Origin: a virus | Direction: 5' to 3' (one strand) | DNA length: 64,000 nucleotides | IMG/VR virus record: IMGVR_UViG_3300035661_000011 | Coordinates: 64,001-128,000 of that record | Shown here: one piece after another, positions 4,497 through 63,583 of the stretch | How positions within the stretch are numbered: position 1 is the first letter of the stretch | Layout of the letters: every line of letters starts with the position of its first letter | Notes under the pieces: generated by a model | What the model was told of the DNA's origin: nothing | The model's input: the letters and a program-made list of their open reading frames with translations, nothing else | Database searches by the model: none | Translations under genes and position numbers: made by a program

Positions 4497-4532
4497 AGGT
4501 AGGACCTACGGGAATTCCCGTAGGTCCTACCT
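4497..4532. terminator. 36-bp perfect palindrome (centre GAATTC), putative terminator
   Basis: AGGTAGGACCTACGGGAA|TTCCCGTAGGTCCTACCT, 17 nt after a stop codon, T-rich downstream. Confidence 0.75.
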
Positions 4533-4595
4533 TTATTACGTCATTTATTATTTTTATTAAAAATCATATAGACTCAAACCCAACAGGCGTATATA

Positions 4596-6113
4596 ATGAC
4601 AAATGTAACAATTCCATTACGAGAAAGTAGTAGTTCAATAACACTACCTATAGTTAAAGCTGTAGTAGAACAATTTCTGTTTCTTTCTGAAGCTGAACAT
4701 ATCAGAAATATCATTTACACACAGAGAACTAACAAAAATACACAGAAGCAAACCAATGAAATACAAGAACCTTTACGTTTAGAAACTAACGAATTAATAA
4801 AGGTCGAATATAGTGTAAAACCAGATACAACAATTGCAGATAACGATAAGTATCTACGAGACTACTTACCTATTTTTAATAACAAAAAACTAGGTGTAGT
4901 TTTAACACCTATGCATGCACATATGGTGTTAGAGATGAATGTTACATATAGGTCACAAAGCTATGACGATTTACTCATATGGCTGACTAACCATGTTAGA
5001 AACACAATGCGATTATCTGCTAGCTCACACCATAACATTTTGTATAACATAACCATACCAGATGAAGTCTACGATTACTTATATGATGTATGGGGTTTAA
5101 CTGAAACGGTTGCGCCGTATGGTAATACGTTTCGTGAGTTTTTAATCGATGGGTTTGTTACTGGTTTATCATTAAGAAAAAATAAAAGTGAAACTGCTGA
5201 AAAACTAATAGTGGCAATTAAAAACACAGCGTGTTTAGGGATGTATACTACATTACCACCCGAAGTGCCAACTACCCAAGGTGAACCACCATTCTCAGAG
5301 ATTACGTTTACATACACGCTTAATTTTGAACAACCTACTGCACTTATACTACGGTTCCAGAAAATCGTCCATAATCGACTTGTAGACATTCGGAGACTAT
5401 ATAAGTTTGCAGATAGAAACTTACACGATGACCCAATGCGAGGAACACACAGTTTAGCTGGAGTGGTGTATGACCAAACAAAAAATCAACAAAATGTAGT
5501 AACGTATCCAGCAAGGTATGTTAATGAATCCGATGGGTGGGTACCAGAGGTTGTACAACCAGGACACAAAATTTACACACTGACTCCTATTCGATTAGAC
5601 TTAGATGATTTACACAGCGTAATAACCTTTTCAGATTTAATTGAATTAGGGTTTCCTGACTGGATGTTAAATGTAGTTATGACGGATATAGTGGCTCCAG
5701 TAACTCCATCTAAGTGGTTTTATCTATTTGTTTTATATGAGGTTAATGAAACAGAAAACATAGTTCCAATTTACATTGATGTTGAATCTGGTGAAATTAA
5801 ATCTATGATTTCATTAGACCCCAGAAGTAGACATTACTTATGTGTTTATAAAAACTTTAAATTGGGTACTGTGGATTTATCAGTGTTACGCAAAGACCCT
5901 GTGTTACTCACTCAAATATTTAATAACTACATACCAAATACACAACTGATTACTATCGGAAATGGTAGTTATGTAGTTACAGATAGTTTACTTACACAAA
6001 TGAACAATGTGTTAGCATTACTGCAACAGCCGTGGGATAATCCAAACTATGTACCGTATAAAGTATTACGTGACGGTACATTCACTTCCACTGTTGTTAG
6101 AAACCAACATTAA
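4596..6113 (+). CDS. Virion structural protein (phiKZ gp98-like position)
   Basis: 505 aa ORF; synteny. Confidence 0.55.
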   Translation: MTNVTIPLRESSSSITLPIVKAVVEQFLFLSEAEHIRNIIYTQRTNKNTQKQTNEIQEPLRLETNELIKVEYSVKPDTTIADNDKYLRDYLPIFNNKKLGVVLTPMHAHMVLEMNVTYRSQSYDDLLIWLTNHVRNTMRLSASSHHNILYNITIPDEVYDYLYDVWGLTETVAPYGNTFREFLIDGFVTGLSLRKNKSETAEKLIVAIKNTACLGMYTTLPPEVPTTQGEPPFSEITFTYTLNFEQPTALILRFQKIVHNRLVDIRRLYKFADRNLHDDPMRGTHSLAGVVYDQTKNQQNVVTYPARYVNESDGWVPEVVQPGHKIYTLTPIRLDLDDLHSVITFSDLIELGFPDWMLNVVMTDIVAPVTPSKWFYLFVLYEVNETENIVPIYIDVESGEIKSMISLDPRSRHYLCVYKNFKLGTVDLSVLRKDPVLLTQIFNNYIPNTQLITIGNGSYVVTDSLLTQMNNVLALLQQPWDNPNYVPYKVLRDGTFTSTVVRNQH

Positions 6114-6125
6114 AGGAACCTGAGC

Positions 6126-7424
6126 ATGCCTACATTCAACGAAAACGATAACTACTATACGGAAGTACCACTAAAGGTAGAATCTATCCCACCGACTGAA
6201 TTTAATGAAATAATAGATTTGGATATTGATACCGCCAGCGTGTTTAGAGATATACAGTACGATGGTTCGGTACTACTGAGTTTAAATGGTAGCCCTAACA
6301 ACGTAACGTATTACTCAAAGCTACTCCAGTCAGATGACTTAGTGGTTAATGCAGATGATATTTCCGATAGGACAATAAAACAGTATAGAAGGATTAACCA
6401 TCTTGAAATAAGGGTCACACAAGCTGATAGCATGACACTTGATGATTCAAGTAATACATCTGCTGTAACTGGTACAGCAAACTTCTACCCTGTGCTCACT
6501 CCACACATAGGGGATGTATTTGTAAAAGACATAGATTCCACAGAAGGGACATATGGTGTTTTTCAAGTAACCAATGTAGAAAGAAAATCTCCATATCACA
6601 TGAGCTCTTGGGGGATATCATATTCTCAAATCAGATACTCTAAGTCATTTAAAGATGAAGAGTCTGAACCATTTGTATTTGATGAAATTGATTTTGAGAT
6701 TAGTAATTTGGAGTTAGGTAGAAACCCCTTAGTTCCAGTGGTCACTAACTTAAAGTTACAAACTAAACAACAGATACGAGCTGAGTTAATACCCCTATAT
6801 TACCGAACGTTTTATAACAAACCGATTGGTACATTCATAGTTCCAATTAGTGGTGGCGGAACTGTATACGACCCATATCTTGTAAACTTTTGGAATTCTA
6901 CTATAAGTGTAAATGAATACTCTCCTTATGCAGCACCAATTGAATACCAGACTAACAACGCGTTTCATGAAAAAGAATACTCCACTGTGTTTGATGTGTA
7001 CATGAAGCAACAAATCGGATTACTACAAAATGTAGTAAAATGTATGGATAAAATATCAACATTGTTTTTTTCTGCACAGTTATTAAAAATAACAGCTTTT
7101 GCAACTGGGTTAGATTATATACTACATCCGCCGATGAACATAGATTGGGACGACGCACCTATGTTTAAACCAGAGGTAATAGTTCCAGTTATACCACCAA
7201 CTGATCCAATCGTGTTACCGACACCATACATCTTTAGTAACAACTTTTATGATAGTGGAGTACCGGATACATTGTTGGAAAAGTTAATATTAAGCGTGAT
7301 TTCACGTAAGACTATATCTACAAAAGACGTTAACCAAGCTTTAGAAATTGTTAAAACTGGAACTAAACTAGAACAGTTCTATCACATACCTTTTATTTTA
7401 TCATTGTTACAGGTGTCGAGATGA
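6126..7424 (+). CDS. Virion structural protein, phiKZ gp99-like
   Basis: 432 aa; VTYYSKLL, QYRRINHLEIRV, PHIGDVF, YDPYLVNF and EQFYHIP motifs; synteny. Confidence 0.65.
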   Translation: MPTFNENDNYYTEVPLKVESIPPTEFNEIIDLDIDTASVFRDIQYDGSVLLSLNGSPNNVTYYSKLLQSDDLVVNADDISDRTIKQYRRINHLEIRVTQADSMTLDDSSNTSAVTGTANFYPVLTPHIGDVFVKDIDSTEGTYGVFQVTNVERKSPYHMSSWGISYSQIRYSKSFKDEESEPFVFDEIDFEISNLELGRNPLVPVVTNLKLQTKQQIRAELIPLYYRTFYNKPIGTFIVPISGGGTVYDPYLVNFWNSTISVNEYSPYAAPIEYQTNNAFHEKEYSTVFDVYMKQQIGLLQNVVKCMDKISTLFFSAQLLKITAFATGLDYILHPPMNIDWDDAPMFKPEVIVPVIPPTDPIVLPTPYIFSNNFYDSGVPDTLLEKLILSVISRKTISTKDVNQALEIVKTGTKLEQFYHIPFILSLLQVSR

Positions 7425-8089
7425 GTGGAGATATTCCGACGTATGAATCTTTACAAAAATACACACAGCTTTTATTTGACCGCACGTACAGATGTATGTG
7501 TGATTTAGTGAGCTTATCGGTTATACAAAAGTTACCTGAGTTAGATATACCTGATACGCCGTTTATTGAGTCGATTGGTATGCATGGTTTTAATTTAGGT
7601 GTGGTAAGAAGTGAAACTAATAACACTTACGATTTGTTAGAAACAGCGTATGGGTGGTCACGTGACTTAGGTGGATATGAGTTTTCACAACACAAAGGTG
7701 AGGGCAGTGTAGAATCTCACAACTTCACGATAGTGCAGATTGCTGAGATTGTGGCTGGGTATGGTAGAGTTGACTTAACATCGGTTAATGACGGAAGAGA
7801 AATTGCTTTTAATATAAGTAAATTTTTAGAAGTAGAAGAAAAATACGCAAGAGTAGATTTACATTATGAACGTCCACCTAAAGAAGATTTACAGGGGCTA
7901 AGAAACTTGTTAGCGTTAGTTGATGGGTTCTTAGAAAAAGCACCAGTTAGAAGTCACAGTAACCGCAAACCTTTACGTTTCGGAACTACTTCTGCAAGTA
8001 CGATAAACAACACTATTACATTACGTAGACAGCAAGAATACCGTGATGACCCAAGAACTCATATTAACCCACATAACTTTTCAAGATGA
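7421..8089 (+). CDS. Hypothetical protein (phiKZ gp100-like position)
   Basis: 222 aa, ATGA-coupled on both sides; RPPKEDL motif. Confidence 0.55.
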   Translation: MSGDIPTYESLQKYTQLLFDRTYRCMCDLVSLSVIQKLPELDIPDTPFIESIGMHGFNLGVVRSETNNTYDLLETAYGWSRDLGGYEFSQHKGEGSVESHNFTIVQIAEIVAGYGRVDLTSVNDGREIAFNISKFLEVEEKYARVDLHYERPPKEDLQGLRNLLALVDGFLEKAPVRSHSNRKPLRFGTTSASTINNTITLRRQQEYRDDPRTHINPHNFSR

Positions 8090-9435
8090 TTATAGACGAT
8101 AAGGTATTTCAGCAGCAGTTCCTTAAAGTGGGAACTTCTAAACAGAAACCAGTAAACTTTACATATAAAGCGGAGTTTGTAGATGAGAACAATAGTGTAA
8201 TTCCTGTACACAATGTTTTACGATTGCAAGTGGCTGCAAATTACATTGAGCATTTTAGTGATGTAATTTTCTACACTATGGATATGTTTAAAAGTAACTA
8301 TTTTAAACTACTGAAAACCAATCGTAAAAGCTTAATGTTACGAGTTACTAAAACTGAATGTTCTTATACTGGTATTATAAATCAAAATGCTACATCGTCT
8401 AGTAGATTATACGATGTAGCATTAACTAATACTACTTCGGAGGCAGTAGAAACTAGACCAGGTAAGTTAACTGGAACTGAGTGGGATGACTTAGGTGGAT
8501 TTCATGAACTTACAGTCCAATTAATAGAGAGAGGATTAAATGAATTTAGAAACTGGGATGTTCCAGCTAGAGTGTATAAAAACTGTAATCTGACTACATT
8601 GTTACAGGGGTTTATGTCAACCCCACTTAAGTCATTAGACCCAAACATGAAAGTTGGATACGGGTGTACTATACACCCACCAGATAACGATGTTAAGTTC
8701 TTTCAGCGTAAAATTCCAGCTGGGATTAGAATTTATAAGTTTCCTAGACATATGCAGAATACGGTGGGTGTATATGGAAACGGATTAGCGTCGTATTTAT
8801 CAAACTCTATGTGGCATGTGTTCCCAACACACAACGTAGATAGATACACTAATGGTTCTAAAAAGATGACTATTATAAACGTTCCAAGAAATGAGATGAT
8901 GGGAAATAACAATAGTTATTTTTTGGACGCTAATGACGATGAGTTATATGTATACGCTACAGGTGACACATCACACGTTGATAACTCTGATAGAGCAATG
9001 AATAAAGTTGGTACTGGGTTTACCACTGTAAATCCAAATAACCTACTGGACGGATTTGTTAAGAACGATAAAGGTACATTAGTTATTCCTAAAGGACAAA
9101 ACTTAATGAGTGTCAACTTTGATTCTCGTTCTAGTGATATTAACAATGTAAAAACTAGTAAGCCTATATCTGGTAATCGTTTTAATGAAGCATCAAAAAT
9201 AACTAAGTCTATGGTTAATACAATTGTGGTAACGTGGGAGTATTCTAATACAGATTTATTGTACCCAGGTATGCCAGTTAAATTCATCTATAAGAATGGA
9301 GAGACTGCACATATGTTACATGGTGTTTTAGCAGGACATCACACCGAGGCAATAACACCCATGCAGTCTGTAACAGATCACAGGTACAAGTCCACAACTC
9401 AGTTAATACTAACTGTGGAACGAGCTAGTAATTAG
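8086..9435 (+). CDS. Virion structural (baseplate hub-like) protein, phiKZ gp101-like
   Basis: 449 aa; GVYGNGLASY and WEYSNTDLLYPGMPVK motifs; synteny. Confidence 0.65.
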   Translation: MIIDDKVFQQQFLKVGTSKQKPVNFTYKAEFVDENNSVIPVHNVLRLQVAANYIEHFSDVIFYTMDMFKSNYFKLLKTNRKSLMLRVTKTECSYTGIINQNATSSSRLYDVALTNTTSEAVETRPGKLTGTEWDDLGGFHELTVQLIERGLNEFRNWDVPARVYKNCNLTTLLQGFMSTPLKSLDPNMKVGYGCTIHPPDNDVKFFQRKIPAGIRIYKFPRHMQNTVGVYGNGLASYLSNSMWHVFPTHNVDRYTNGSKKMTIINVPRNEMMGNNNSYFLDANDDELYVYATGDTSHVDNSDRAMNKVGTGFTTVNPNNLLDGFVKNDKGTLVIPKGQNLMSVNFDSRSSDINNVKTSKPISGNRFNEASKITKSMVNTIVVTWEYSNTDLLYPGMPVKFIYKNGETAHMLHGVLAGHHTEAITPMQSVTDHRYKSTTQLILTVERASN

Positions 9436-9453
9436 AAAGTTCAATTTATATAA

Positions 9454-9468
9454 AAACATATATTATCT
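9454..9468 (+). promoter_or_regulatory. Putative early (virion RNAP) promoter motif, copy 1
   Basis: AAACATATATTATCT, intergenic, one of 10 copies; resembles the phiKZ early TATATTAC core. Confidence 0.75.
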
Positions 9469-9469
9469 T

Positions 9470-9650
9470 GGTGATATAGTTACTTTATCGCTTACACTAA
9501 AATGTGCGTCTGGAGGTTTAATTAACAACGGTGCATTACGAACCATTGATAAGTTAGGCGTTATTTCCATAGTTAACAATAAAAACTTATCACCTGCATA
9601 AACCTTATATGGTGGATCCCTGACAGAAATGTCAGGAGTCCACCACTAGT
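9470..9650 (+). ncRNA. Candidate structured small RNA or long structured leader
   Basis: No ORF of 60 aa or more between promoter copy 1 and a GAAA-loop hairpin; nested complementarity 9514-9520/9599-9605, 9532-9535/9595-9598, 9547-9555/9584-9592. Confidence 0.3.
9610..9645 (+). terminator. Imperfect hairpin with GAAA loop
   Basis: TGGTGGA-TC-CCTGACA GAAA TGTCAGG-AG-TCCACCA. Confidence 0.55.
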
Positions 9651-9684
9651 TTAAAACATTTAACTTTATTCGGAGATTTACAGT

Positions 9685-10632
9685 ATGTCATCAACTACCA
9701 ATATTACTAAAGAACAAGAAGCTTACATTATCACACTTATTGAAAATGGCGGGTTCTTAAAAGAAGAAGATTTACAGTACAGGGATGTGTTTCGTGCTGT
9801 TGGATTTGTAGTGACTCATGATAACGGGGAGTTCTATTTAACCGGTATGACGCATATACAGAGTGGTATTTTAACAAAATACCGCATTTCAGCACTACAC
9901 AAGAAGATGTTAATGAAAGGACATGACGTTCCACTGGATGTGGTCGCAGCACTTGTGAAACAATCACATACCAAAGTGCACCCAGTGTTATTTCAGTTAG
10001 GTGTAATTTTTACAAACGACACCTTACTAAAACACTTTCTAAGAAACCCACTGTTTTTACACGGTAGTGTTTCAGAAAGTTCAACGTGTGACTATGAAGA
10101 TTGGTTACAACGAACTATGTCTGTGGCTACAATCTACCAGTTTCAAACGATATTAAAGGCACATGATTTAAAGTTGATAGAAACTGCTATTGACAAAGTG
10201 CACACTCAGCTGAAAGGAGTTATCGATTTTGTAAAGTATGAAAAACCAAAAGATTACATTAGATACAATCAACCAAAATTAAGGTTGGGGAATCTTTGTA
10301 TTAAAGAAATTCTCGATTACGGTAAGGATTTTACTGAAGAAGCAGAGTGGGTACTTAAACAGCATTTAAAGTTGGAAGATTGTAAGTTCCCATATTTGCT
10401 GTGTAGTAAGAAGAAACGCGAAATAAATGAGCCAGACGAAGTCGTAGTGCTTCAAAAGTATACAACCGCTGGTGAAGCATTGAGTGAATGTAAAAAGCAC
10501 TCTGGGCGACTTATTGTGATGATTAATTTTAAACGTAACAAGTTGGGATGGTTTGAGTTACATGAACGTATAACGAGCGGAAAATATGTTTACATTGGTT
10601 CCGAAGATCGTCTAACTACACACAAGGGGTAA
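9685..10632 (+). CDS. Hypothetical protein (early cassette)
   Basis: 315 aa, SD GGAG upstream. Confidence 0.7.
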   Translation: MSSTTNITKEQEAYIITLIENGGFLKEEDLQYRDVFRAVGFVVTHDNGEFYLTGMTHIQSGILTKYRISALHKKMLMKGHDVPLDVVAALVKQSHTKVHPVLFQLGVIFTNDTLLKHFLRNPLFLHGSVSESSTCDYEDWLQRTMSVATIYQFQTILKAHDLKLIETAIDKVHTQLKGVIDFVKYEKPKDYIRYNQPKLRLGNLCIKEILDYGKDFTEEAEWVLKQHLKLEDCKFPYLLCSKKKREINEPDEVVVLQKYTTAGEALSECKKHSGRLIVMINFKRNKLGWFELHERITSGKYVYIGSEDRLTTHKG

Positions 10633-10635
10633 CTT

Positions 10636-11097
10636 ATGCTAACTACAGAAGAAAAAGCAAATTTGTTAGAAACGTTAGCTTGGGTAGTTGACAATGTTAG
10701 ACGTGTTAACCTTATACGGATAGATCTGGAGACTGGAAAAATCCAACTACACACTGAACAGATTTCTGGAATTTCCGGATTATGTACACTGTATGAACAG
10801 GGGTGGAGTTACACAAGTCTAAGTAAAAACACGTTTGAATTAACGCCCCCGGTTACCGACGATGTACACACTGGGTTATCCGTGTATGAACTAGATATAC
10901 CGATGGTAACTAAACGTGCATTGGTAACTACATTTGGAACAGTGTATCGTGGCAAACGTAGAACCGATATGTCCTTAGGAGATTTAGTTAAACTAACGCC
11001 ATTACAACTGTGTTCAGCATACAACGTGGGAAAAGTTAGTGTCTACAAAATAATCAGAGCGTTATCTGAACACAACCTTACTCTGGCCGATAAGTAA
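10636..11097 (+). CDS. Protein with C-terminal RNA polymerase alpha-CTD-like (HhH) domain
   Basis: SVYELDIPMVTKRAL...SLGDLVKLTPLQLCSAYNVGKVSVYKIIRALSEHNLTL aligns by eye with RpoA PVDDLELTVRSANCL...[38 protein letters not shown]. Confidence 0.75.
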   Translation: MLTTEEKANLLETLAWVVDNVRRVNLIRIDLETGKIQLHTEQISGISGLCTLYEQGWSYTSLSKNTFELTPPVTDDVHTGLSVYELDIPMVTKRALVTTFGTVYRGKRRTDMSLGDLVKLTPLQLCSAYNVGKVSVYKIIRALSEHNLTLADK

Positions 11098-11105
11098 AAG
11101 TGGTA

Positions 11106-11141
11106 AATACACCACGTGTCTATATAGACACGTGGTGTATT
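11106..11141. terminator. 36-bp perfect palindrome between convergent genes
   Basis: AATACACCACGTGTCTAT|ATAGACACGTGGTGTATT. Confidence 0.75.
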
Positions 11142-11206
11142 ATACTAATGGCTTATTTTTTAACTAATCAAACTATTTTTTTTTTTAAGTTTACAACCCA
11201 CACAGT

Positions 11207-12724
11207 TTAATCATCAAAGAAACTAGAAGATGACATAGAGTTGGAATTTGGTAACCTAAATAAAGCTGTGGACTCCATACCTACGTCTGGTTTAATACCA
11301 CCTAACTCAAACTTATAATAAAAGTCTCTACGGTTCATAGGGATAAAGTCACCCTCTCTTCGTTTTCCCCTCGAAACACACCAGTATGAACTACCATCAA
11401 TATGCTTACACACATTTGATAAAATTTCCATATCGAGTTCACTATATATACTCTTAGAGTTTTCATACCAGCTACCCTCAGCAAACAGTTTTGTACATCC
11501 GCCAGGGTTTTCTTTTGCTATGGCTCTAGCTTGTGAATCTAATTGTGCACCAGTAGCTAAAGCTATACCTTTGGGGTAGCAGTAACTTCTCATTATGTCA
11601 TAGGTTAATGCTAACTTTATATCATCCCTAGGAGCAGGTGTGTGCTTTGCTATTTTTGTAGCATAGTCAAAGTTACACATATGTATTTCATACCCATCAG
11701 AAATAATTTTATCCAATAGACTAATGAGGTTAAATACACTAAACACATTAGGGTTACATTTGATGAGAAAGACTTTATATCCAGTTTCATCAAAATACTC
11801 CCGTATGTATTCGCCAGCAGCTTCTTTTACAATTTTACCTAAAGGTGTATATACCCCTGTTTCTCTCCAGTGAGCACGCTGATACAAAACAGGTACATCT
11901 TGTTCAGTTGTAGTCTCAACACTAACTCTAACAATTGCTGGTATTTTAGTTGGATCAAATAACCAAGGTTTAGTAAACTTTGGTACATTTAATGTTAAGT
12001 CTAATAAATGTCCAGTCTTATATCCGAATGAAACCGCCCCGATGTTATAAGTCCAACCTCGTATTAACCCACCACCTATAGCATCGTTTAAACCTTGATA
12101 TCCAGTGTTTAACATTCCCTTCTCATCGTTCATGGTTATACCACGGTCTAACGCCTTAGTGATATCTGCAATGTTACCAAAATCAACAATGGTTTCTACA
12201 CCCGGAATCTCTTCCTGACTCATACCTGTGTTAATATCTGACAACTCGGCAATTACTTCTGATAAGAAAGGCTGCATTTCTAAAAACTCACCACTAAAAC
12301 TAATTTTAGCATTTGCTTTCTGTAACGCTTTTCTTGCATTGTCTTTTTTAGTAATGAATCGTAACTCGTTAATAATAGAAGCAATACGACCATCTAACAT
12401 ATCTGGGTTAATCTCAACACGTAATACTTTTTCGACTACAGCCATGTATTCTGGGTTATCTCTACAGTTAATGCGCATTCGTCCAATTACATCTTCTGCG
12501 TGGTGTTTGGTGTCAATAGTGTAGAGCATCCATTCAGCTGAATCCCTAAGGTTTTCTACGATATTTTCATCACTACCAACACCCATTGTAAATTTAGGGT
12601 CAATTTTAATCTTATCTAATATTCGTTTTACTTCATCTTTAATGTGATGTGAACATCCTTCTTTATGACCACACAGGTATAAAAGAGTAATTATTTTAAT
12701 CAACTTTAAAACTTCGTTATCCAT
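11207..12724 (-). CDS. Replicative DnaB-like helicase (phiKZ gp118-like)
   Basis: LNTGYQGLNDAIGGGLIRG...GAVSFGYKT Walker A variant, CNFDY Walker B, TGAQL, RGKRR; divergent from the capsid operon as in phiKZ. Confidence 0.85.
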   Translation of the reverse strand: MDNEVLKLIKIITLLYLCGHKEGCSHHIKDEVKRILDKIKIDPKFTMGVGSDENIVENLRDSAEWMLYTIDTKHHAEDVIGRMRINCRDNPEYMAVVEKVLRVEINPDMLDGRIASIINELRFITKKDNARKALQKANAKISFSGEFLEMQPFLSEVIAELSDINTGMSQEEIPGVETIVDFGNIADITKALDRGITMNDEKGMLNTGYQGLNDAIGGGLIRGWTYNIGAVSFGYKTGHLLDLTLNVPKFTKPWLFDPTKIPAIVRVSVETTTEQDVPVLYQRAHWRETGVYTPLGKIVKEAAGEYIREYFDETGYKVFLIKCNPNVFSVFNLISLLDKIISDGYEIHMCNFDYATKIAKHTPAPRDDIKLALTYDIMRSYCYPKGIALATGAQLDSQARAIAKENPGGCTKLFAEGSWYENSKSIYSELDMEILSNVCKHIDGSSYWCVSRGKRREGDFIPMNRRDFYYKFELGGIKPDVGMESTALFRLPNSNSMSSSSFFDD

Positions 12725-12808
12725 AATACCGAACTACCTCTATTTTTTTGTTTGTTATATTTATGTAACAACTGTTAACCATTAACTCGACACTAGGAGC
12801 TATAGGAT

Positions 12809-13282
12809 GTGAAGAAACTATTATATTTAAACGGCGTACAACTCGCATTACTATCACAGCAGGGCGTTAACCTTAATACTCTAACGATTGATAAATTAAA
12901 AGACTCACTTATAGGTTCTGACTTTATAAATATTTGTGAGACAACTGCTACTATGTGTTCAAAGTTTAGTTTTATTAATCGGCTTGGTTTAGAACTAGAC
13001 ACAGATTGGTTACCCACCATCTGTCATAGCTTTTATCAAGGAACTACACAACCAGACATACATGGTTTAACCACACCGCCCTTAGGAACTATCTTTGGTG
13101 CCATTTGTACAACAGATAAAATTCTACTGTTATACCCTATGGAATCCGAGTATATTAATGAGTATGATATGTGCAAGCATTCGCGATTAAACATCTTGTC
13201 TGCTTTAACGAAAATCATGATTTTTAAAGAACTTAAACAGTTAAACGTATTCAAGTCTGCATTTATCGCAGAAGGAAAATAA
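12809..13282 (+). CDS. Hypothetical protein upstream of the major capsid gene
   Basis: 157 aa, GTG start with AGGAG SD. Confidence 0.6.
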   Translation: MKKLLYLNGVQLALLSQQGVNLNTLTIDKLKDSLIGSDFINICETTATMCSKFSFINRLGLELDTDWLPTICHSFYQGTTQPDIHGLTTPPLGTIFGAICTTDKILLLYPMESEYINEYDMCKHSRLNILSALTKIMIFKELKQLNVFKSAFIAEGK

Positions 13283-13284
13283 CA

Positions 13285-15579
13285 ATGGCATACTTCGGAT
13301 TAAAAACACTAGATAGCGCATCTGTATCAGCAAGAGCTGCTATCAAAAACATCGTACTAAGTAACGGTAGCTTACTTGGGAAAGACGACCTCTATGGATT
13401 TTGTGGTTTGGAAGCACTTAGCGATAGACGCAAAATGCCAGAGTTCCTTGACAAAGTTGGTGTAGTGGTTGATGTTTTAAAACGCGATCCAGCAATCACA
13501 ACTTGGGTAACTGGCTTAGCTACACCAGATAGAAACGCCGTATACTTTGGTACTAATGCTGCACAGTCTGTAGCTGGTATGGAGTCTATTAGAGACAGCT
13601 GGGTAGACGACGCATTCCAAACATTAGCAGTTTCATTAATGTCACAAATGTCACCACACGAAACCGTAAAACAGTATAATAACATCTGTCCTCAAGCTGG
13701 CAGTGAACGTATCGCACATTCTTTTCAAGGTGCTCCATCTTTAGCTGGTTTAGATAACCCTACTTGGGGTGAGAAATGGGGATTGGAGTCATTTGATCCA
13801 ATCCAACATTTGGATTTCATTGCCGCTTCTGCAATGATTAATGCACAAACTTCTATCCCTGGTGGGTTTGAAGACACGTGGTTTCCTGCTATCTCTTTAC
13901 CACCTGGTCAGGCTGGTTACGATGTACAGATTCAAGTACCAAAGATTTTAATTACACGTTATCGTAATACTTCATCTGGCGCACCTATGCTTCTGCAAAA
14001 AGTGAACTTAGTTGAAGCTGCATACAACCCATCGATTATGGCGTCTAACGGAATTGATATTATTCCAATCGCTATCTCTGCTACAGAACCTGCTCAGTTA
14101 GTTGTTGAAGCTTTAGTTCCTGCTTGGGAAAAAGAAATCCTAGGCGAGAAAATGAAGACTCGACCAATCATCTTTGGTGAAGAAGTTGGTTTAATCGAAC
14201 TTGCTACCTTTAAAGGTATCGAGAACGGTGGTACAATGGACACCACAGATGCCTTATATACTAACATCGGTATTAAAGACATTTACTTTAAAGTAACTGT
14301 AACTACAGGCAAGAATACTGCTACACCAGTTGTTAAATCTGCGGTAATTAAAAACGATGTTACTAACGTAGTCGGTACACTGTTGCAACAAAAGACATTA
14401 GGTCGTCCACAAGGCTTACAAACCACAACCGAAGCACCATTGTATTTAAGTAGCGATTTTACTCCTGTTTCTGGCGACACAAATGCTGACGTTATTGGTG
14501 CCATTCGCAATATCATGGGTCTAGCTGCATCAGCTAAATTTACACTGCAAGGTGTAGTTCGTTTATCTGCTACAGCTGATACTGAAATCGGCAGTATGGT
14601 AGTTGACCAAGCACAACCAAAAGTGGTTTCCGCATTTGGTCCAGTTAAATCTGGTCAGTTACCAATCACGTATGATATCTCAACATTGGACAGCGCAGCT
14701 ACCAGTGTAACTATCACTATGGTTGGGTGGTATCCATCTGCTAAACGTACTAACTCAAACTTACGTACCAATGGAACAATCATTGATGCAAGCAACGTTG
14801 TAAACTACCGTTTGCCTATCAACGTATTTCCTCCATTTACTGCACGTACTGCATTAAACACAACTGACCAAATTACATTTGAAACTTTGGCTAACGTTAC
14901 ACAGTTGTGGGTGTCTGGACAATGTGTTGAAAAGTTATTACAAATGGAAGATTGGTTAACTGAAGTTTCTGGCACTCCAATGGGTGTCGGTGTAATGACT
15001 AACCAGTGTCCAATCATGGGTGGCGAATTTGTTATTCCAACACTTCGTAAAGACTTTGTTGATTTGCAATCATTATGCAAAAACTGGCAGTCTAAAGACA
15101 CATTGGCTAACATTCGCGCCACTATCCAAACAAGTATTATGTACAACTCTTTAGCGTTGTATATGGAGTCTGGTTATTCTTCAGCGATGCAAATGCTGTT
15201 GTCTGATTTGGATGCATATGAAACAATCATTGTTACTGATCCATTGATTGCGCAATACTTTATGGAACCTGGTGATATAAGAACCTTTGGTGATAATCGT
15301 AAATATATCATCACCAAATCTAACAACAAAGACATTCGTGGTAAAGTGTATTACTCGTTCCGTTTAGTAGGTTCAGGTGATTTGGTACACCCTATGTCAT
15401 TCGGTTGCAGATTACAATCACCAAACATCACATATGAAGTTGTACCTATGGCTCGTAGTGGTGCGACATACCGCGAAATTCAATCTATGCCACGTGTAGT
15501 ACCCTATGCTAATTTACCAGTGTTAGGCGTGCTTCTTATTCGTGGGTTGGATACATTCGCTAGCTCACCTGCACAATAG
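13285..15579 (+). CDS. Major capsid protein (phiKZ gp120-like)
   Basis: 764 aa; WGLES maturation site followed by FEDTWFP; TRPIIFG, DTTDAL, AKRTNSNLRTNG, IIVTDPLIAQY, NLPVLG motifs; biased codon usage. Confidence 0.9.
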   Translation: MAYFGLKTLDSASVSARAAIKNIVLSNGSLLGKDDLYGFCGLEALSDRRKMPEFLDKVGVVVDVLKRDPAITTWVTGLATPDRNAVYFGTNAAQSVAGMESIRDSWVDDAFQTLAVSLMSQMSPHETVKQYNNICPQAGSERIAHSFQGAPSLAGLDNPTWGEKWGLESFDPIQHLDFIAASAMINAQTSIPGGFEDTWFPAISLPPGQAGYDVQIQVPKILITRYRNTSSGAPMLLQKVNLVEAAYNPSIMASNGIDIIPIAISATEPAQLVVEALVPAWEKEILGEKMKTRPIIFGEEVGLIELATFKGIENGGTMDTTDALYTNIGIKDIYFKVTVTTGKNTATPVVKSAVIKNDVTNVVGTLLQQKTLGRPQGLQTTTEAPLYLSSDFTPVSGDTNADVIGAIRNIMGLAASAKFTLQGVVRLSATADTEIGSMVVDQAQPKVVSAFGPVKSGQLPITYDISTLDSAATSVTITMVGWYPSAKRTNSNLRTNGTIIDASNVVNYRLPINVFPPFTARTALNTTDQITFETLANVTQLWVSGQCVEKLLQMEDWLTEVSGTPMGVGVMTNQCPIMGGEFVIPTLRKDFVDLQSLCKNWQSKDTLANIRATIQTSIMYNSLALYMESGYSSAMQMLLSDLDAYETIIVTDPLIAQYFMEPGDIRTFGDNRKYIITKSNNKDIRGKVYYSFRLVGSGDLVHPMSFGCRLQSPNITYEVVPMARSGATYREIQSMPRVVPYANLPVLGVLLIRGLDTFASSPAQ

Positions 15580-15604
15580 TTTTAACCGTTAAGTAAGTAG
15601 ATAT

Positions 15605-15638
15605 GTGCACACACAGCTTATATAAGCTGTGTGTGCAC
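15605..15638. terminator. 34-bp perfect palindrome after the capsid gene
   Basis: GTGCACACACAGCTTAT|ATAAGCTGTGTGTGCAC, T-run a few nt downstream. Confidence 0.75.
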
Positions 15639-15654
15639 TATTCGTTTTTAATTT

Positions 15655-15669
15655 AAACATATATTATCT
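15655..15669 (+). promoter_or_regulatory. Putative early promoter motif, copy 2
   Basis: AAACATATATTATCT exact. Confidence 0.75.
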
Positions 15670-15716
15670 ATTTGAGCTAACTATTAGTTTATCATTTAAA
15701 CAAACTGGAGAAACCT

Positions 15717-16283
15717 ATGCGATACATAATTCAAAAAGTTACAATGGCGATTATATTTCAATTAGCTATAATAAGGTTTTATATAGCGTATAGTAGAAAT
15801 GGTAATATGTCAGCACTGTGTTTATATTACGCGTTTGTATCAACGATATATACGCGAGAATTGGATAAAATAAAACCAAGTAACAGTGTGCACGAAATAC
15901 ATATTTTAAAAAGTGTGATGCGTGATGTTAACTCACACGATGCTAAGTTAGCTACATTGGGGGACGAACAGATTTTAGTGTTGTGTAAAATACTTAAGTA
16001 TGAAATGGTACCGTTGATAAAATCATATATACGTGGAAAAATAAATATTCTACGTTTATATAACACGTTTGGGTATTATCTATTAGATGACGAAAGTCCA
16101 TATAAAGAACAATTATTAAAACTCGGTGTTAATAAGGAAACACTTGAAAGTATAAATGGGTATTTGTATTCTACAATTCGACACATCAGGTACACTGCCT
16201 CAGTCCAAAGGTTTCAACAGGTGACCGCTGTATTTTCACAAAACGTATTAAAGTTTTCTAAACCGTTTAACCTCATGGCGTAG
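15717..16283 (+). CDS. Hypothetical protein (single-gene early cassette)
   Basis: 188 aa, GGAG SD, bounded by two palindromes. Confidence 0.65.
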   Translation: MRYIIQKVTMAIIFQLAIIRFYIAYSRNGNMSALCLYYAFVSTIYTRELDKIKPSNSVHEIHILKSVMRDVNSHDAKLATLGDEQILVLCKILKYEMVPLIKSYIRGKINILRLYNTFGYYLLDDESPYKEQLLKLGVNKETLESINGYLYSTIRHIRYTASVQRFQQVTAVFSQNVLKFSKPFNLMA

Positions 16284-16284
16284 T

Positions 16285-16318
16285 CGTACTCCAGGCAGAA
16301 TATTCTGCCTGGAGTACG
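16285..16318. terminator. 34-bp perfect palindrome
   Basis: CGTACTCCAGGCAGAAT|ATTCTGCCTGGAGTACG then TATTATTTTT. Confidence 0.75.
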
Positions 16319-16340
16319 TATTATTTTTCGACAATGACAC

Positions 16341-16355
16341 AAACATATATTATCT
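16341..16355 (+). promoter_or_regulatory. Putative early promoter motif, copy 3
   Basis: AAACATATATTATCT exact; heads the operon containing the non-virion RNAP subunit. Confidence 0.75.
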
Positions 16356-16374
16356 AGATGACACTAGTTAGCTT

Positions 16375-17457: not shown

Positions 17458-17515
17458 ATTTTAAAGGACGTTAACCATGATGTGTTTGTCTAAATTACAT
17501 TTATAGAGGGGTTGT

Positions 17516-20644: not shown

Positions 20645-20680
20645 ACGATACATACACTCAGTGATGAGTGTATGTATCGT
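20645..20680. terminator. 16-bp stem, GTGA tetraloop, between convergent genes
   Basis: ACGATACATACACTCA GTGA TGAGTGTATGTATCGT. Confidence 0.75.
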
Positions 20681-27315: not shown

Positions 27316-27330
27316 AAACATATATTATCT
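27316..27330 (+). promoter_or_regulatory. Putative early promoter motif, copy 4
   Basis: AAACATATATTATCT exact. Confidence 0.75.
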
Positions 27331-27365
27331 GATAGAGTCATGTAAGAAATTACATGACTCTATCA
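27330..27365 (+). terminator. 16-bp stem with GAAA loop abutting promoter copy 4
   Basis: TGATAGAGTCATGTAA GAAA TTACATGACTCTATCA; terminator of the portal unit or a 5' leader hairpin. Confidence 0.55.
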
Positions 27366-28883: not shown

Positions 28884-28913
28884 GTAATAGGGAGCATTAA
28901 TGCTCCCTATTAC
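28884..28913. terminator. 30-bp perfect palindrome between convergent genes
   Basis: GTAATAGGGAGCATT|AATGCTCCCTATTAC then a long T-run. Confidence 0.75.
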
Positions 28914-28935
28914 ATAAGTCTTTTTTTTTTACATT

Positions 28936-30725: not shown

Positions 30726-30788
30726 CTAAGACTCCTAAGGTTAAGTTATGCAACACATGATAACCTTGTGATAACTCAATAAATACTT

Positions 30789-30803
30789 ATTTATATATCA
30801 TCT
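30789..30803 (+). promoter_or_regulatory. Putative early promoter motif, copy 5 (variant)
   Basis: ATTTATATATCATCT upstream of a + strand cassette inside the - strand tail region. Confidence 0.55.
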
Positions 30804-30876
30804 AGTAGAGTAAACAATAATGTTTTCTTTTGTTGCTATTACAATTTAATAGTTAATTATATTTTGGAGATTTACC

Positions 30877-31910: not shown

Positions 31911-31942
31911 ATCTAATTCCCCCGAATTCGGGGGAATTAGAT
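31911..31942. terminator. 32-bp perfect palindrome between convergent genes
   Basis: ATCTAATTCCCCCGAA|TTCGGGGGAATTAGAT. Confidence 0.75.
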
Positions 31943-34932: not shown

Positions 34933-34966
34933 TGTGGTAGTCAGTGGATATCCACTGACTACCACA
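34933..34966. terminator. 34-bp perfect palindrome downstream of the Ala-rich cluster
   Basis: TGTGGTAGTCAGTGGAT|ATCCACTGACTACCACA; T-rich side is on the - strand here. Confidence 0.75.
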
Positions 34967-42582: not shown

Positions 42583-42610
42583 GGTATGGATTTAGATCTA
42601 AATCCATACC
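42583..42610. terminator. 28-bp perfect palindrome
   Basis: GGTATGGATTTAGA|TCTAAATCCATACC. Confidence 0.7.
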
Positions 42611-44591: not shown

Positions 44592-44625
44592 TGATGAGTA
44601 TCACAGGAATCTGTGATACTCATCA
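44592..44625. terminator. 15-bp stem, GAAT loop
   Basis: TGATGAGTATCACAG GAAT CTGTGATACTCATCA. Confidence 0.7.
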
Positions 44626-46983: not shown

Positions 46984-47017
46984 GGTATAGTGGAGACAGC
47001 AATGTCCCCACTATACC
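46984..47017 (+). terminator. 15-bp stem (one mismatch), GCAA loop
   Basis: GGTATAGTGGAGACA GCAA TGTCCCCACTATACC, T-run 6 nt downstream. Confidence 0.7.
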
Positions 47018-48506: not shown

Positions 48507-48538
48507 TGAGTGACATACACGCCTGTGTATGTCACTCA
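48507..48538. terminator. 14-bp stem, GCCT loop
   Basis: TGAGTGACATACAC GCCT GTGTATGTCACTCA. Confidence 0.7.
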
Positions 48539-49793: not shown

Positions 49794-49829
49794 ACAATGA
49801 CACTGCCAGTTAACTGGCAGTGTCATTGT
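49794..49829. terminator. 36-bp perfect palindrome
   Basis: ACAATGACACTGCCAGTT|AACTGGCAGTGTCATTGT then AGTTTTT. Confidence 0.75.
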
Positions 49830-52355: not shown

Positions 52356-52365
52356 GAGAGAGTTT

Positions 52366-52617
52366 ATGTCAGATACACAAGACAAAATACCACTTAGTTC
52401 GTGGCTTAAAGTAGCAGTTAACGTAGTTATTTCTAGTGTATACATAGTGGTGTTATTAGCACTAGTGTGGATTTGTGGTGAATACTTTTACTATAAACTC
52501 ACATCGTATCAGATTACACTGAGTCCAGTTACTTTAGTGCTACTCTGTGTACTGTGCTATGTGTACGGTTATTTACACCATAAAGCTAAAGTAGCAGCTT
52601 TACAGGAGGATGCATGA
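52366..52617 (+). CDS. Small two-TM membrane protein
   Basis: ATG 52366 with AGGAG SD; two hydrophobic segments. Confidence 0.6.
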   Translation: MSDTQDKIPLSSWLKVAVNVVISSVYIVVLLALVWICGEYFYYKLTSYQITLSPVTLVLLCVLCYVYGYLHHKAKVAALQEDA

Positions 52618-53512: not shown

Positions 53513-53550
53513 GTATGTCCACTGTGTAGTTAACTACACAGTGGACATAC
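53513..53550. terminator. 38-bp perfect palindrome
   Basis: GTATGTCCACTGTGTAGTT|AACTACACAGTGGACATAC; a second small hairpin at 53568-53587. Confidence 0.75.
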
Positions 53551-55027: not shown

Positions 55028-55061
55028 GTAGGTACGAGACACATATGTGTCTCGTACCTAC
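55028..55061. terminator. 34-bp perfect palindrome
   Basis: GTAGGTACGAGACACAT|ATGTGTCTCGTACCTAC. Confidence 0.75.
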
Positions 55062-55595: not shown

Positions 55596-57272
55596 ATGGC
55601 AAACGTTGTTAAATTACACCCTGAAGAAATAGTGTCTTTAAAGCTAAGATTTGAAGGTATAGCTGAAACCCTTAATCTTGGGGATATCGTTGTTTTTGTC
55701 AAAGAAGAAGATGTACGTGTTGAGTTAGTTGGCCCCGGTAATCCGTTTATCATTTTAGAAAATCGGAAACTCGGGTTCATTGTACCAATGTTTTTCGATC
55801 ATTCAAACTGTGATACGTTTGAAACTGTAAGATTATCCAACACTTACAGCTGGATATCAGAGTGTAGAATCGATGAACAGAGCGCAGTAATGTTAACCGC
55901 CTACATAGGTAGACGATCTACCCGGTCATTCAATGTGGAATTTTATACAGGTGACGATTTGTATGAGGATATGGTCACATTTGTAAACACGTTACGGTGG
56001 CTACACGAAAGTGATTTTTACAAAAGTCAAAATATTCACCACTGTTACCATCGGGATGAGGCAATGCCTCTACTGGATAAAAATAAACCCATTGATATAA
56101 AAGGGGTTTTACTTAAACAAAAAGCAAAGCGGGACAAATTTAAACACGCAACTACGTTAAACGATAAAACAATTGTCATTCCAAAACACTGGGTGATGGA
56201 ATTGCGATTAATGCTAGTACAGGACATTAACTTAGATGATATAGATATCCACTACATCGGTGGACCTAGTAAACAAAAACCTGTATTGGAAAACAATTTA
56301 TGTATTCCAGACTGGCATGACCTTAAAGTGTTTGAAACTGCCGCTGATATAAACTTAACTGACGCAGATAATAACCACGATTTTATTATTTTAGAAAGCG
56401 GATGTGTTGGGTTTGCATTTCTTAACGGTGCAGGTGTTATTAGCTATGTGGTTGGCGATGGGGACATAGATACCGTTCTATGTGACATTAGTGTAGGACG
56501 TCTGAAATGTTTTTTAGAGCTGTACAAATATATGAATGGTGCTAACGGTGCCGAAAACAACTCATTTCATTTAGACCCAGATTTGTTACGTAAGTTACAA
56601 CTCAGAACCGTTGGGTTACCAAACTGTGATATTGGAGAACTTTATTTATACGATACATACTGCCAAGTTGATGTATTTTGGGACATAAATAGCATATCTT
56701 ATACAACTAAGTCTATTCCAGACGTATTTATCACAATGTGCGATATGGTTGTTTGGGAAAGAAAAGGTCTATTTTCTGCACACCGTACAACAACCAGTAG
56801 AATTGTCACTGTTAACACACTTGAACAAATCAAAAGTTATGCTACCACCGCAGGTAAGTCTCTGGATCCCGAATCACAAAGTAAACTGTACGGTTGTATT
56901 TATTCTATCGCGGTATGTAGCGAACCTAGACATTATGTTCTTTCAGAAGAAGTGTTAGATGAACTTAAGCTCCAAGTTTTAGATCCGCAATATATACACT
57001 CTGTAGGCGGTTCTGTTAAAGTGTATCCTAATTTAGGTGACGTAACGGAAGCCGAGTTACACAAACCGTTTATCAGCCTAGATTCATGTAGTGTTAATGT
57101 AGCGTTAACCGATGAGGAAAATTCTGAGTTAAAAGAGGTGATGGGAGATAGAGTGGTGGTGTACCCATTGGACAAAGGAAGTTTTACATCTAGTCCAGAC
57201 TGGGTATTGGATGAAGAAAGTAAATTGCGACTGAACGAATATCTGGCGCGACCAGACGTAAAGTTAGTTTAA
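55596..57272 (+). CDS. Hypothetical early protein with about four tandem copies of an unknown domain
   Basis: Recurring L..(E/D)...L(K/Q/R)L, FI(I/S)L(E/D) and (L/I)D.(E/Q)S...L..Y motifs. Confidence 0.7.
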   Translation: MANVVKLHPEEIVSLKLRFEGIAETLNLGDIVVFVKEEDVRVELVGPGNPFIILENRKLGFIVPMFFDHSNCDTFETVRLSNTYSWISECRIDEQSAVMLTAYIGRRSTRSFNVEFYTGDDLYEDMVTFVNTLRWLHESDFYKSQNIHHCYHRDEAMPLLDKNKPIDIKGVLLKQKAKRDKFKHATTLNDKTIVIPKHWVMELRLMLVQDINLDDIDIHYIGGPSKQKPVLENNLCIPDWHDLKVFETAADINLTDADNNHDFIILESGCVGFAFLNGAGVISYVVGDGDIDTVLCDISVGRLKCFLELYKYMNGANGAENNSFHLDPDLLRKLQLRTVGLPNCDIGELYLYDTYCQVDVFWDINSISYTTKSIPDVFITMCDMVVWERKGLFSAHRTTTSRIVTVNTLEQIKSYATTAGKSLDPESQSKLYGCIYSIAVCSEPRHYVLSEEVLDELKLQVLDPQYIHSVGGSVKVYPNLGDVTEAELHKPFISLDSCSVNVALTDEENSELKEVMGDRVVVYPLDKGSFTSSPDWVLDEESKLRLNEYLARPDVKLV

Positions 57273-57281
57273 TGATGTTAC

Positions 57282-57311
57282 AGTGGAGTTACACCTAGGT
57301 GTAACTCCACT
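57282..57311. terminator. 30-bp perfect palindrome
   Basis: AGTGGAGTTACACCT|AGGTGTAACTCCACT. Confidence 0.7.
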
Positions 57312-59035: not shown

Positions 59036-59067
59036 GTGTACACCCAGGATTAATCCTGGGTGTACAC
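59036..59067. terminator. 32-bp perfect palindrome between convergent genes
   Basis: GTGTACACCCAGGATT|AATCCTGGGTGTACAC then TATTATTTTTTTT. Confidence 0.75.
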
Positions 59068-61780: not shown

Positions 61781-61789
61781 GGTACACTT

Positions 61790-62458: not shown

Positions 62459-62470
62459 CAAGGTGTACAA

Positions 62471-63226
62471 ATGCGTCCATTAAAAATATTAGTTGGGTTA
62501 GATAGTCTACTCGATACACGCTTGGTTTGTGTTGGTATGATAAATCCAGACCACGTAATACCATTGTTAAAACGCGGATATAGAGAACGGATGCATAACA
62601 AGTTATCATTGATTTTACCTGAGATTAACGATGAAGCTGTAGAAGCATTGTTTGCTGAACGCGATATGCCTATGGTGAAACTATCTCGTAGTACAAATAT
62701 TGTGCACCTGTTAGCTGAACGTATAGTCGAATCTCAAATATCTGGTGATACAAGACCCGATAGCAGAGAGATTACGATTATATTAAACACGTATCCGTAC
62801 TCTATATCAAAACAAGAAGTGTTAGCTTTTGCAAATGGTTTATCAGAAGTGTTTAAAACAAAAAAGATAACTCGGGTACATTTACCTACCGAAGAACTAA
62901 CACCGAAATATTTACGTGAAAACTATAGTCGTTATATAACACACGACTTAAACGAATGGCTAGGTGTACATCAGGTAAACTTAATAGAAGACCCAATGCC
63001 ACTGTTTACAATTATCTCACCGAAGTGTATACTAGACCCCGTAAAGTTTACTGACATTATAGATGCAGATAATAAAGGTGATAAAGACCATTACAACAAA
63101 TGCTTCGATGTTGTTTTTGAGTCGTTAAAAAGAAATACTTCGAAGTATGTAGAACTAGAATTCTGTCCACTAGCAGATTTCTCAATGACAATCCCACATT
63201 CAGCTGTAAGTAAAGAAAAGGAATAG
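62471..63226 (+). CDS. Conserved protein, phiKZ gp147-like (HAD-like N-terminus)
   Basis: LDSLLDTR and LNTYPY motifs; synteny. Confidence 0.65.
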   Translation: MRPLKILVGLDSLLDTRLVCVGMINPDHVIPLLKRGYRERMHNKLSLILPEINDEAVEALFAERDMPMVKLSRSTNIVHLLAERIVESQISGDTRPDSREITIILNTYPYSISKQEVLAFANGLSEVFKTKKITRVHLPTEELTPKYLRENYSRYITHDLNEWLGVHQVNLIEDPMPLFTIISPKCILDPVKFTDIIDADNKGDKDHYNKCFDVVFESLKRNTSKYVELEFCPLADFSMTIPHSAVSKEKE

Positions 63227-63229
63227 TTT

Positions 63230-63535
63230 ATGTTGTCCGATGAAGAGATTCAATCCTTGTTAGAAACGCATAGTGGTTTAACACTACTATACTTTATGCA
63301 CGATAACTGTGCTCCATGTAAAGTATTTAAACCAATTGTTAATAAAGTAATTGACTCGTACAATGGTCGTATTACACTTGCGGTGGTTGATGTTACACAA
63401 AGTGTGATTGCTAGAAATTACAGTGTGCGAAGTGTTCCAACTGTTATGTTATTTAAAGATGGGGTTTTAGTTGAAACTCACTCCGGTACTATGTCTGAAG
63501 TAGAATTTAGTACGATGCTAAAAGTTAATTTGTAA
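63230..63535 (+). CDS. Thioredoxin
   Basis: CAPCK active site, VRSVPTVMLFKDG. Confidence 0.9.
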   Translation: MLSDEEIQSLLETHSGLTLLYFMHDNCAPCKVFKPIVNKVIDSYNGRITLAVVDVTQSVIARNYSVRSVPTVMLFKDGVLVETHSGTMSEVEFSTMLKVNL

Positions 63536-63545
63536 ATTAAATTGT

Positions 63546-63583
63546 CATGTACAGTGCCTACGTTAACGTAGGCACTGTACATG
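63546..63583. terminator. 38-bp perfect palindrome
   Basis: CATGTACAGTGCCTACGTT|AACGTAGGCACTGTACATG. Confidence 0.75.

Follow-up and report, generated by a model that had tools for sequence, protein, structure and literature searches.

Spacer-less palindromes at gene ends in a clade of phiKZ-like jumbo phages: candidate terminator hairpins with a plausible origin in template switching

Introduction

Why should a phage close gene after gene with a DNA palindrome that has no spacer at all? The question is raised by a 64,000-nucleotide (nt) stretch of virus DNA (hereinafter, the window), namely, bases 64001-128000 of the 154.5-kb IMG/VR record IMGVR_UViG_3300035661_000011 (the contig; CheckV completeness, ~54%), the intergenic regions of which are punctuated by perfect palindromes of 28-38 base pairs (bp). 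The preliminary description of these palindromes, made from the sequence of the window, saw in them a candidate for an undescribed system, distinct from ordinary terminators, in which selection or repair would act on the DNA of both strands. The comparisons reported here point to a different combination: the probable, although by no means secure, explanation is that these are terminator or 3'-end hairpins kept perfect by template switching from arm to arm, a known process taken to an extreme.

The major capsid protein, 764 amino acids long, contains the phiKZ capsid domain. Its identity to the capsid protein of any named phage does not exceed 28%, and its top matches are among phiKZ-like jumbo phages of Vibrio, Pseudomonas, Ralstonia and Erwinia; a megablast search with 7.4 kb against named phages gave no match. 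Judging by these similarities, the source is an uncultured relative of the giant phage phiKZ, in a deep-branching clade of phiKZ-like jumbo phages. Arm-by-arm comparison was made with a relative, R, a 70.5-kb IMG/VR contig that is colinear with contig positions 38424-109690 at ~78% identity. An IMG/VR profile scan had R, already known, as its sole match, and no relative turned up in a capsid-protein scan of metagenomes or in a scan with a second protein. An exact scan with a 16-nt promoter-like word recovered pieces of R along with ~110 unrelated contigs, which were reused as a background panel.

Results

Perfect palindromes with self-complementary centers

All 14 palindromes originally enumerated in the window are genuine, each interval being equal to its own reverse complement over 28-38 bp, and their central tetramers are those first listed (Table 1). 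The six accompanying hairpins with 4-nt loops are less uniform than had been stated: those starting at 20645, 27330, 44592 and 48507 have perfect stems of 14-16 bp, whereas the one at 46984 contains an A.C mismatch, and the one at 9610, two adjacent mismatches. The whole contig holds 29-31 zero-spacer palindromes of 28-44 bp (29 by a half-length threshold of at least 12), compared with a longest half-length of only 8-12 in 20 dinucleotide shuffles. A mismatch or wobble is present in just 3 of the ~47 contig hairpins, which bears out the reported near absence of G-U pairs, and the stems show no sense-strand preference for such pairs.

The property that demands an explanation is the symmetry of the centers. 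Under a uniform rule, whereby at least 10 perfect pairs surround a central tetramer, the center is self-complementary in 14 of 19 cases in the window and in 29 of 41 in the contig; the excess noticed initially thus stands. For the contig, p=1e-23 when the expectation is taken from intergenic composition (0.076), and p=1e-9 when it is set at 0.25, the value for A/T-only tetramers. Among centers made of A and T only, 27 of 28 are self-complementary (p=1e-15). The contig-wide tally is TTAA 13, AATT 7 and ATAT 7, with AGCT, ACGT, GATC and CTAG seen once each; in 23 of 31 cases, a purine immediately precedes the center on its 5' side. A and T make up 94% of the central 4 nt (two inner positions per arm), and the outer stem positions average ~50% GC, compared with 36.5% in the window as a whole, a shift so sharp that the central tetramer behaves like a loop. 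RNA folding also makes this tetramer the loop, at -21 to -33 kcal/mol, and GNRA, the classic stable tetraloop, accounts for four of the six non-palindromic loops in the window, which again suggests a folded single strand. Self-complementary loop bases are required by neither an RNA hairpin nor a DNA cruciform, so that structure alone does not account for the symmetric centers.

The arms are unrelated in sequence, which confirms that the palindromes are not copies of one mobile repeat, bar one repeated copy outside the window. The shared sequence that would mark a dispersed palindromic repeat, similar to repetitive extragenic palindromic (REP) elements or miniature inverted-repeat transposable elements (MITE), is confined to a single identical pair, at contig 6509 and 56399; because the arms have no sequence in common, mobile-repeat and operator-site readings were dropped. 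A ~150-bp intergenic repeat occurs at contig 6477-6628 and 56367-56520, before the window, with a partial copy at window 30773-30882, and is present in R too. It contains an identical 32-bp palindrome (center TTAA), the only palindrome sequence that recurs, and one copy lies in a divergent gap.

Position and polarity of gene-end signals

Every palindrome in the window, including the minus-strand case, begins 1-25 nt past the stop codon of a gene that reads toward it. Of the 19 convergent gaps, 12 contain a hairpin, as do 31 of 104 tandem gaps on the plus strand, 1 of 16 on the minus strand and 1 of 19 divergent gaps (p=4e-4 for convergent versus divergent), the sole divergent case being the repeat copy. 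In another relative, L008, all 8 intergenic hairpins lie 5-22 nt past stop codons that were called independently by the Joint Genome Institute (JGI). By position, then, the elements are the stem-loops that an intrinsic terminator places at the 3' end of a transcription unit.

Their surroundings are polar as well. A T-run of at least 4 lies within 20 nt on the sense side of 23 of the 45 hairpins, compared with 8 of the 45 for the antisense side (p=0.002), and, in the contig as a whole, the plus strand has 47 T8 runs to the single one of the minus strand. Fifteen T-runs of at least 7 come after a strong hairpin at a gap of 2-14 nt; none of the long runs abuts its stem, as had been noticed before. 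The U-tract directly adjoining the stem of a classical intrinsic terminator is accordingly missing, and a generic terminator scan flags 2 of the 4 palindromes in window positions 1-20000. TATT or TTATT directly after the stem (offset 0-1) is found on the sense side of ~10 of 46 hairpins, compared with ~4 on the antisense side.

Downstream, a motif with the core TATATTAT and a consensus of about ACATATATTATCT has 19 copies on the contig, all on the plus strand and 0 on the minus strand; 10 of the 19 lie 6-54 nt past a hairpin, and the motif usually precedes a start codon by 30-90 nt. It probably represents a class of promoters recognized by the phage's own RNA polymerase; the early promoter of phiKZ has been described as an extended -10 box that is AT-rich, with a T-rich motif upstream of it (PMC8244752). 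Sigma-70-type promoters are depleted relative to shuffles (46 versus 77 +/- 9 in window 1-20000), which is consistent with transcription by the phage's own polymerases. Position, polarity and the nearby motif together give a recurring layout, in which the stop codon is followed by the hairpin, often by a T-run, and then by a promoter-like box. Because of the variable spacing of 6-54 nt, a reading of the hairpins themselves as promoters of the N4 type was rejected. Most likely, the hairpins are terminator or 3'-end signals, and the view that they are something other than transcript-end signals is not borne out: in position, polarity and neighboring promoter-like motifs, they look like terminators.

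Coordinated change of the two arms in relatives

Hairpins are found at corresponding junctions of the contig and R. Divergence between these genomes amounts to 44% at 4-fold sites, 18% in the 15-nt flanks of the hairpins and 12% in the stem arms. Substitutions were counted in 10 ungapped, clearly homologous hairpin pairs comprising 161 stem pairs. In 19 of these, both sides changed in a compensated manner (15 by transition, 4 by transversion), and in 2, only one side; had the arms evolved independently, ~35 one-sided changes and 0.8 both-sided ones would be expected. The both-sided changes include adjacent double and triple ones; multi-base differences of this kind, mirrored in both arms, are a hallmark of template switching. 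Two further hallmarks, spacer inversion and a mirrored indel, are represented by a single case each in an eleventh pair (contig 50285 / R 12513), in which three additional compensated changes occur together with a 1-bp indel mirrored in both arms and a GT/AC flip of the center. At contig 59952, the centers of the two hairpins are TTAA and ATAT, and the difference is a compensated transversion at positions 1 and 4 of the loop, between which no pair can form in a tetraloop; another hairpin pair has a GTGA loop in one genome and a palindromic CTAG center in the other. Six pairs at conserved junctions were too diverged to be counted: four are at the level of shuffled arms (contig/R 51257/13512, 57208/18340, 75106/36321 and 79605/41116; z -1.1 to 1.1), and two are weakly similar (80285/41791 and 84645/46132; z 2.7 and 3.2).

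Self-complementary centers extend to 8 of 14 hairpins in R and to 6 of 8 in L008, the capsid protein of which is 57% identical, and a hairpin is present at the matching place after the capsid gene (window 15605..15638 site) in R, L008 and L010. L014, an independent assembly from a different sample, matches R with 100% identity, including in the hairpins, which excludes an assembly artifact; perfect palindromes also recur at orthologous sites in separately assembled genomes. L010, a Logan contig of 5.7 kb from a relative whose capsid protein is 49% identical, has both its ends inside perfect palindromes (L010:1-30 and L010:5669-5696). Assemblies of the clade probably fragment at palindromes.

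A promoter-gene-hairpin cassette lies between two hairpins at contig 51295-52480, ~12 kb before the window, where R has a single hairpin and no cassette; this is a moron-like gain or loss beside terminators. The idea that breakpoints of gene gain and loss fall at palindrome centers found no support in the comparison of the contig with R, in which indels lie beside the hairpins in their intergenic gaps, as they would around any intergenic signal, and not at palindrome centers.

Terminators of phiKZ and other points of comparison

The terminators of phiKZ and 201phi2-1 have been mapped by Oxford Nanopore Technologies (ONT)-cappable-seq (PMC10914365, PMC11512511). They share with the elements described here the character of gene-end hairpins in phages with their own multisubunit RNA polymerases, with a T/A-rich tail in place of the classical abutting U-tract. 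The architecture is nevertheless different. In 200 kb of phiKZ sequence, the gene-end hairpins have C-rich stems of 7-9 bp that follow a common motif, mostly TTCG loops and a TTAT tail, in agreement with the published motif, whereas here the stems are 14-22 bp long and unrelated in sequence, TTCG is absent, and ~70% of the hairpins are spacer-less palindromes. The TTAT tail may have a counterpart in the TATT or TTATT that directly follows about 10 of 46 hairpins here. The contig hairpins do not follow the phiKZ-type combination of a conserved C-rich 7-9-bp stem with a W-rich or TTCG tetraloop (PMC10914365). Self-complementary centers amount to 7 of 57 in phiKZ and 1 of 12 in BONAISHI; neither phage shows the style of the clade.

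The background panel (967 kb of unrelated IMG/VR contigs) contains 3.6 long hairpins per 100 kb compared with 20-36 in the clade, that is, they are ~5-10 times rarer; 13 of its 35 long hairpins have self-complementary centers, some within simple AT repeats. Spacer-less palindromes are a minority class generally and the dominant class in the clade. Unusually long stems are also a feature of extra-long-stem intrinsic terminators, which resist processive antitermination (Miguel-Arribas et al. 2023, as cited in PMC11512511); as presented there, these are not reported to be spacer-less palindromes.

Table 1. Gene-end palindromes, hairpins and associated motifs (window coordinates; nt past stop, distance from the stop codon)
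Position	Feature	Strand or location	Remarks
4497..4532	36-bp perfect palindrome, center AATT	17 nt past stop of + gene 3130-4479	R ortholog: one compensated stem change, center AGTT
9459, 15660, 16346, 27321, 44638, 49561, 55526, 57803, 63603 and 10 more on contig	promoter-like motif core TATATTAT	+	
9610..9645	imperfect hairpin, GAAA loop, two adjacent stem mismatches	+	read from sequence
11106..11141	36-bp perfect palindrome, center ATAT	convergent junction, 8 nt past stop	R: different palindrome at same junction
15605..15638	34-bp perfect palindrome, center ATAT	25 nt past stop of major capsid gene	followed by TATT and T-run
15660..15667	promoter-like motif TATATTAT	+	22 nt past palindrome 15605..15638
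16285..16318	34-bp perfect palindrome, center ATAT	1 nt past stop	followed by TATTA and T5
16346..16353	promoter-like motif TATATTAT	+	28 nt past palindrome 16285..16318
20645..20680	16-bp stem, GTGA (GNRA) loop	convergent junction	R ortholog: zero-spacer palindrome, center CTAG
27330..27365	16-bp stem, GAAA loop	+	TATATTATC motif immediately before; R: two compensated changes, loop unchanged
28884..28913	30-bp perfect palindrome, center TTAA	convergent junction	R: one compensated change
28921..28930	T10 run	+	7 nt past palindrome 28884..28913
31911..31942	32-bp perfect palindrome, center AATT		T10 run 14 nt downstream; R: identical
34933..34966	34-bp perfect palindrome, center ATAT	25 nt past stop of minus-strand gene 34992-35705	R: two compensated changes
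42583..42610	28-bp perfect palindrome, center GATC	14 nt past stop	
44592..44625	15-bp stem, GAAT loop	+	promoter-like motif 13 nt later; R: one compensated and one one-sided change
46984..47017	15-bp stem, one A.C mismatch, GCAA (GNRA) loop	convergent junction	
48507..48538	14-bp stem, GCCT loop	+, 4 nt past stop	
49794..49829	36-bp perfect palindrome, center TTAA	4 nt past stop	
53513..53550	38-bp perfect palindrome, center TTAA	2 nt past stop	
55028..55061	34-bp perfect palindrome, center ATAT	13 nt past stop	T9 run 11 nt downstream
57282..57311	30-bp perfect palindrome, center CTAG	9 nt past stop	
59036..59067	32-bp perfect palindrome, center TTAA	convergent junction	T9 run 5 nt downstream
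63546..63583	38-bp perfect palindrome, center TTAA	10 nt past stop	promoter-like motif 20 nt downstream

Two other inverted repeats in the window were noted. A 13-bp perfect inverted repeat with a 12-nt spacer (8386-8423) lies within coding region 8086-9435 and is not conserved as a repeat in R. An A/T-rich 15-bp stem with a 5-nt loop (30916-30950), in the gap that separates the divergent genes 29406-30725 (minus) and 31285-31899 (plus), is unlike the gene-end class and is missing from R.

Discussion

Two layers have to be kept apart in interpreting these elements, what they do and how they came to be so symmetric. With respect to the first, we infer that RNA 3' ends lie at the hairpins: as RNA, each element would fold into a perfect 12-20-bp stem, with the central A/U tetramer as the loop, just past a stop codon. 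With respect to the second, template switching would be the cause. At replication, the nascent strand would switch template between the arms, within one strand or across the fork, in a quasipalindrome correction of the type described by Ripley, so that a mutation in one arm would be either erased or copied into the other. Asymmetric loops would be flipped and, in time, made symmetric, the perfect palindrome being the only state that repeated flipping and patchwise copying could not change. Selection would tolerate no pairs but the weak A/T ones in the central tetramer, leaving the loop able to open, and GNRA loops would persist where stability is selected.

Template switching between the arms of inverted repeats was first seen in phage T4 (Ripley 1982) and has also been studied by the Lovett laboratory; it homogenizes arms, inverts spacers, and can maintain perfect hairpins as well as make them through a single event (PMC5941160, PMC8604942, PMC8794818). 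Perfect arms, multi-base changes in both arms, mirrored indels and spacer inversion, the marks of this correction, are all found between the contig and R. Unlike the sporadic mutational process of the published cases, the correction here would shape nearly every terminator of a clade and would reach through the loop, as suggested by genome comparison. Two quantitative considerations favor it. The stems (-21 to -33 kcal/mol) are far more stable than the working terminators of the jumbo phage 201phi2-1 (-7 to -19 kcal/mol; PMC11512511), so that a single G.U pair or mismatch should cost little, and yet only 3 of ~47 hairpins have one. Furthermore, an arm divergence of 12%, near the 18% of the flanks, combined with the almost complete lack of intermediates, would be predicted by arm-to-arm copying and only poorly by stepwise compensation. 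The part of the preliminary description that attributed perfect stems and self-complementary centers to a process acting on DNA, symmetrically for both strands, therefore survives as the best account, the symmetry being in excess of what an RNA hairpin needs; the notion of an undescribed system does not, because the likely cause has been described already (PMC5941160, PMC8794818, PMC8604942).

Evolution at the RNA level alone, with compensatory selection keeping terminator hairpins paired and symmetric centers reflecting selection for the same hairpin on both strands, appears to us a rather unlikely alternative, albeit one with substance. Nine palindromes sit at convergent junctions, 15 of the 132 terminators of 201phi2-1 are bidirectional (PMC11512511), and the stem divergence of 12% is below the 44% at 4-fold sites, so that the rate alone does not demand gene conversion. 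However, the share of self-complementary centers is similar in convergent (9/12) and tandem (19/31) gaps (p=0.49), and the T-runs are one-sided, so bidirectional use does not explain the symmetry; phiKZ hairpins with TTAT on both strands make do with non-palindromic TTCG/CGAA loops; asymmetric A/T-only loops should work equally well in both directions and yet account for 1 of 28; and the near lack of G.U pairs in over-stable stems is hard to derive from RNA stability. It is unlikely, too, that the symmetry is itself functional or actively enforced, be it as cruciform signals for the divergent RNA polymerases or recombination enzymes of the phage or through a dedicated activity that rewrites terminators into spacer-less palindromes. 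Stems perfect on both strands, A/T-only centers and a narrow range of lengths would suit extruded cruciforms that serve as punctuation for phage RNA polymerases, or as substrates of a resolvase or SbcCD-like nuclease in recombination or replication restart, and the window does encode candidates. The proposed cutting and homogenizing by phage RuvC and SbcC has no specific support, nonetheless, and the matches are weak: 19 bits for the RuvC-like open reading frame (ORF) and, against SMC_N, 34 bits for the SbcC-like ORF, neither of which reaches the Pfam cut-off. More generally, a DNA-level function of this kind is quite unlikely: a cruciform, too, leaves ~4 nt unpaired and does not require a self-complementary center, the placement and T-run polarity are strand-specific, and the distance to the promoter motif varies over 6-54 nt. 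By annotation, phiKZ has an SbcD-like nuclease and BONAISHI a Holliday-junction resolvase, and yet the hairpins of both are short and mostly TTCG-looped, with palindromes in 7/57 and 1/12, respectively; RuvC or SbcCD is rejected, therefore, as the clade-specific cause, and the putative roles for cruciforms, RuvC or SbcC are not needed for the explanation.

An RNA-processing scenario would have an RNase III-type enzyme cut long, perfect double-stranded RNA stems to set mRNA 3' ends. There is a precedent in the 'hairpin rule' of the Mimiviridae: in Mimivirus, a large virus with its own transcription machinery, sequence-unrelated palindromes mark the transcript ends, a viral RNase III cleaves the hairpins, and polyadenylation follows (PMC4402537). 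The palindromes at the putative transcript ends described here are likewise unrelated in sequence, and their presence at many gene ends, about half of them without a T-run, would suit such processing. However, no RNase III domain (PF14622) was matched in the 154 kb, ~54% of the genome; this scenario also leaves the central symmetry unexplained. Stems of 14-19 bp are, moreover, near the lower length limit for RNase III, and we consider processing of this type improbable. That the palindromes reflect an assembly or sequencing artifact, or one dispersed mobile repeat, is scarcely credible: palindromes do disturb de Bruijn assemblers, and one Logan contig of a relative begins and ends in them, but orthologous palindromes in independent assemblies show compensated differences, a second sample reproduces R base for base, and the arms share no sequence.

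Several observations weigh against template switching at terminators as the full explanation. TATA never forms the center in the contig or its relatives (none of 27 A/T-only centers; p=4e-4), whereas background viral palindromes commonly have it (4 of 13); its absence is a sign of additional selection on the center that the template-switching model does not explain. About half of the hairpins have no T-run, and the existing runs are offset by 2-14 nt, which weakens the case for canonical intrinsic termination. Short palindromes (half-length 8-11) are not in excess genome-wide (6 versus ~4 expected), and generally hyperactive template switching is thus not evident. R is the single alignable relative, and the changes are, therefore, neither polarized nor dated. 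The route from a 4-nt loop to a symmetric one is our own inference, and a study of template switching in rRNA found loop changes to be rare. Compensatory selection in very large phage populations may be an alternative source of paired changes, and the template-switch evidence for stem maintenance is called circumstantial by one of its own sources (PMC8794818). On balance, the perfect symmetry, loop included, appears to be a trait of the clade that is best explained by a known DNA-level correction process rather than by a new genetic system.

If this explanation is correct, the palindromes would represent an unusually clean natural case of a mutational process, template switching, shaping a whole class of regulatory signals, one in which it would outweigh RNA-level selection even at loop positions that never pair. 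The clade would then be a good test system for the creation and maintenance of RNA hairpins by template switching. Terminator architecture differs sharply among lineages of phiKZ-like phages, which is relevant to the annotation of uncultured jumbo phages and, because the contigs of relatives break at palindromes, to their assembly as well.

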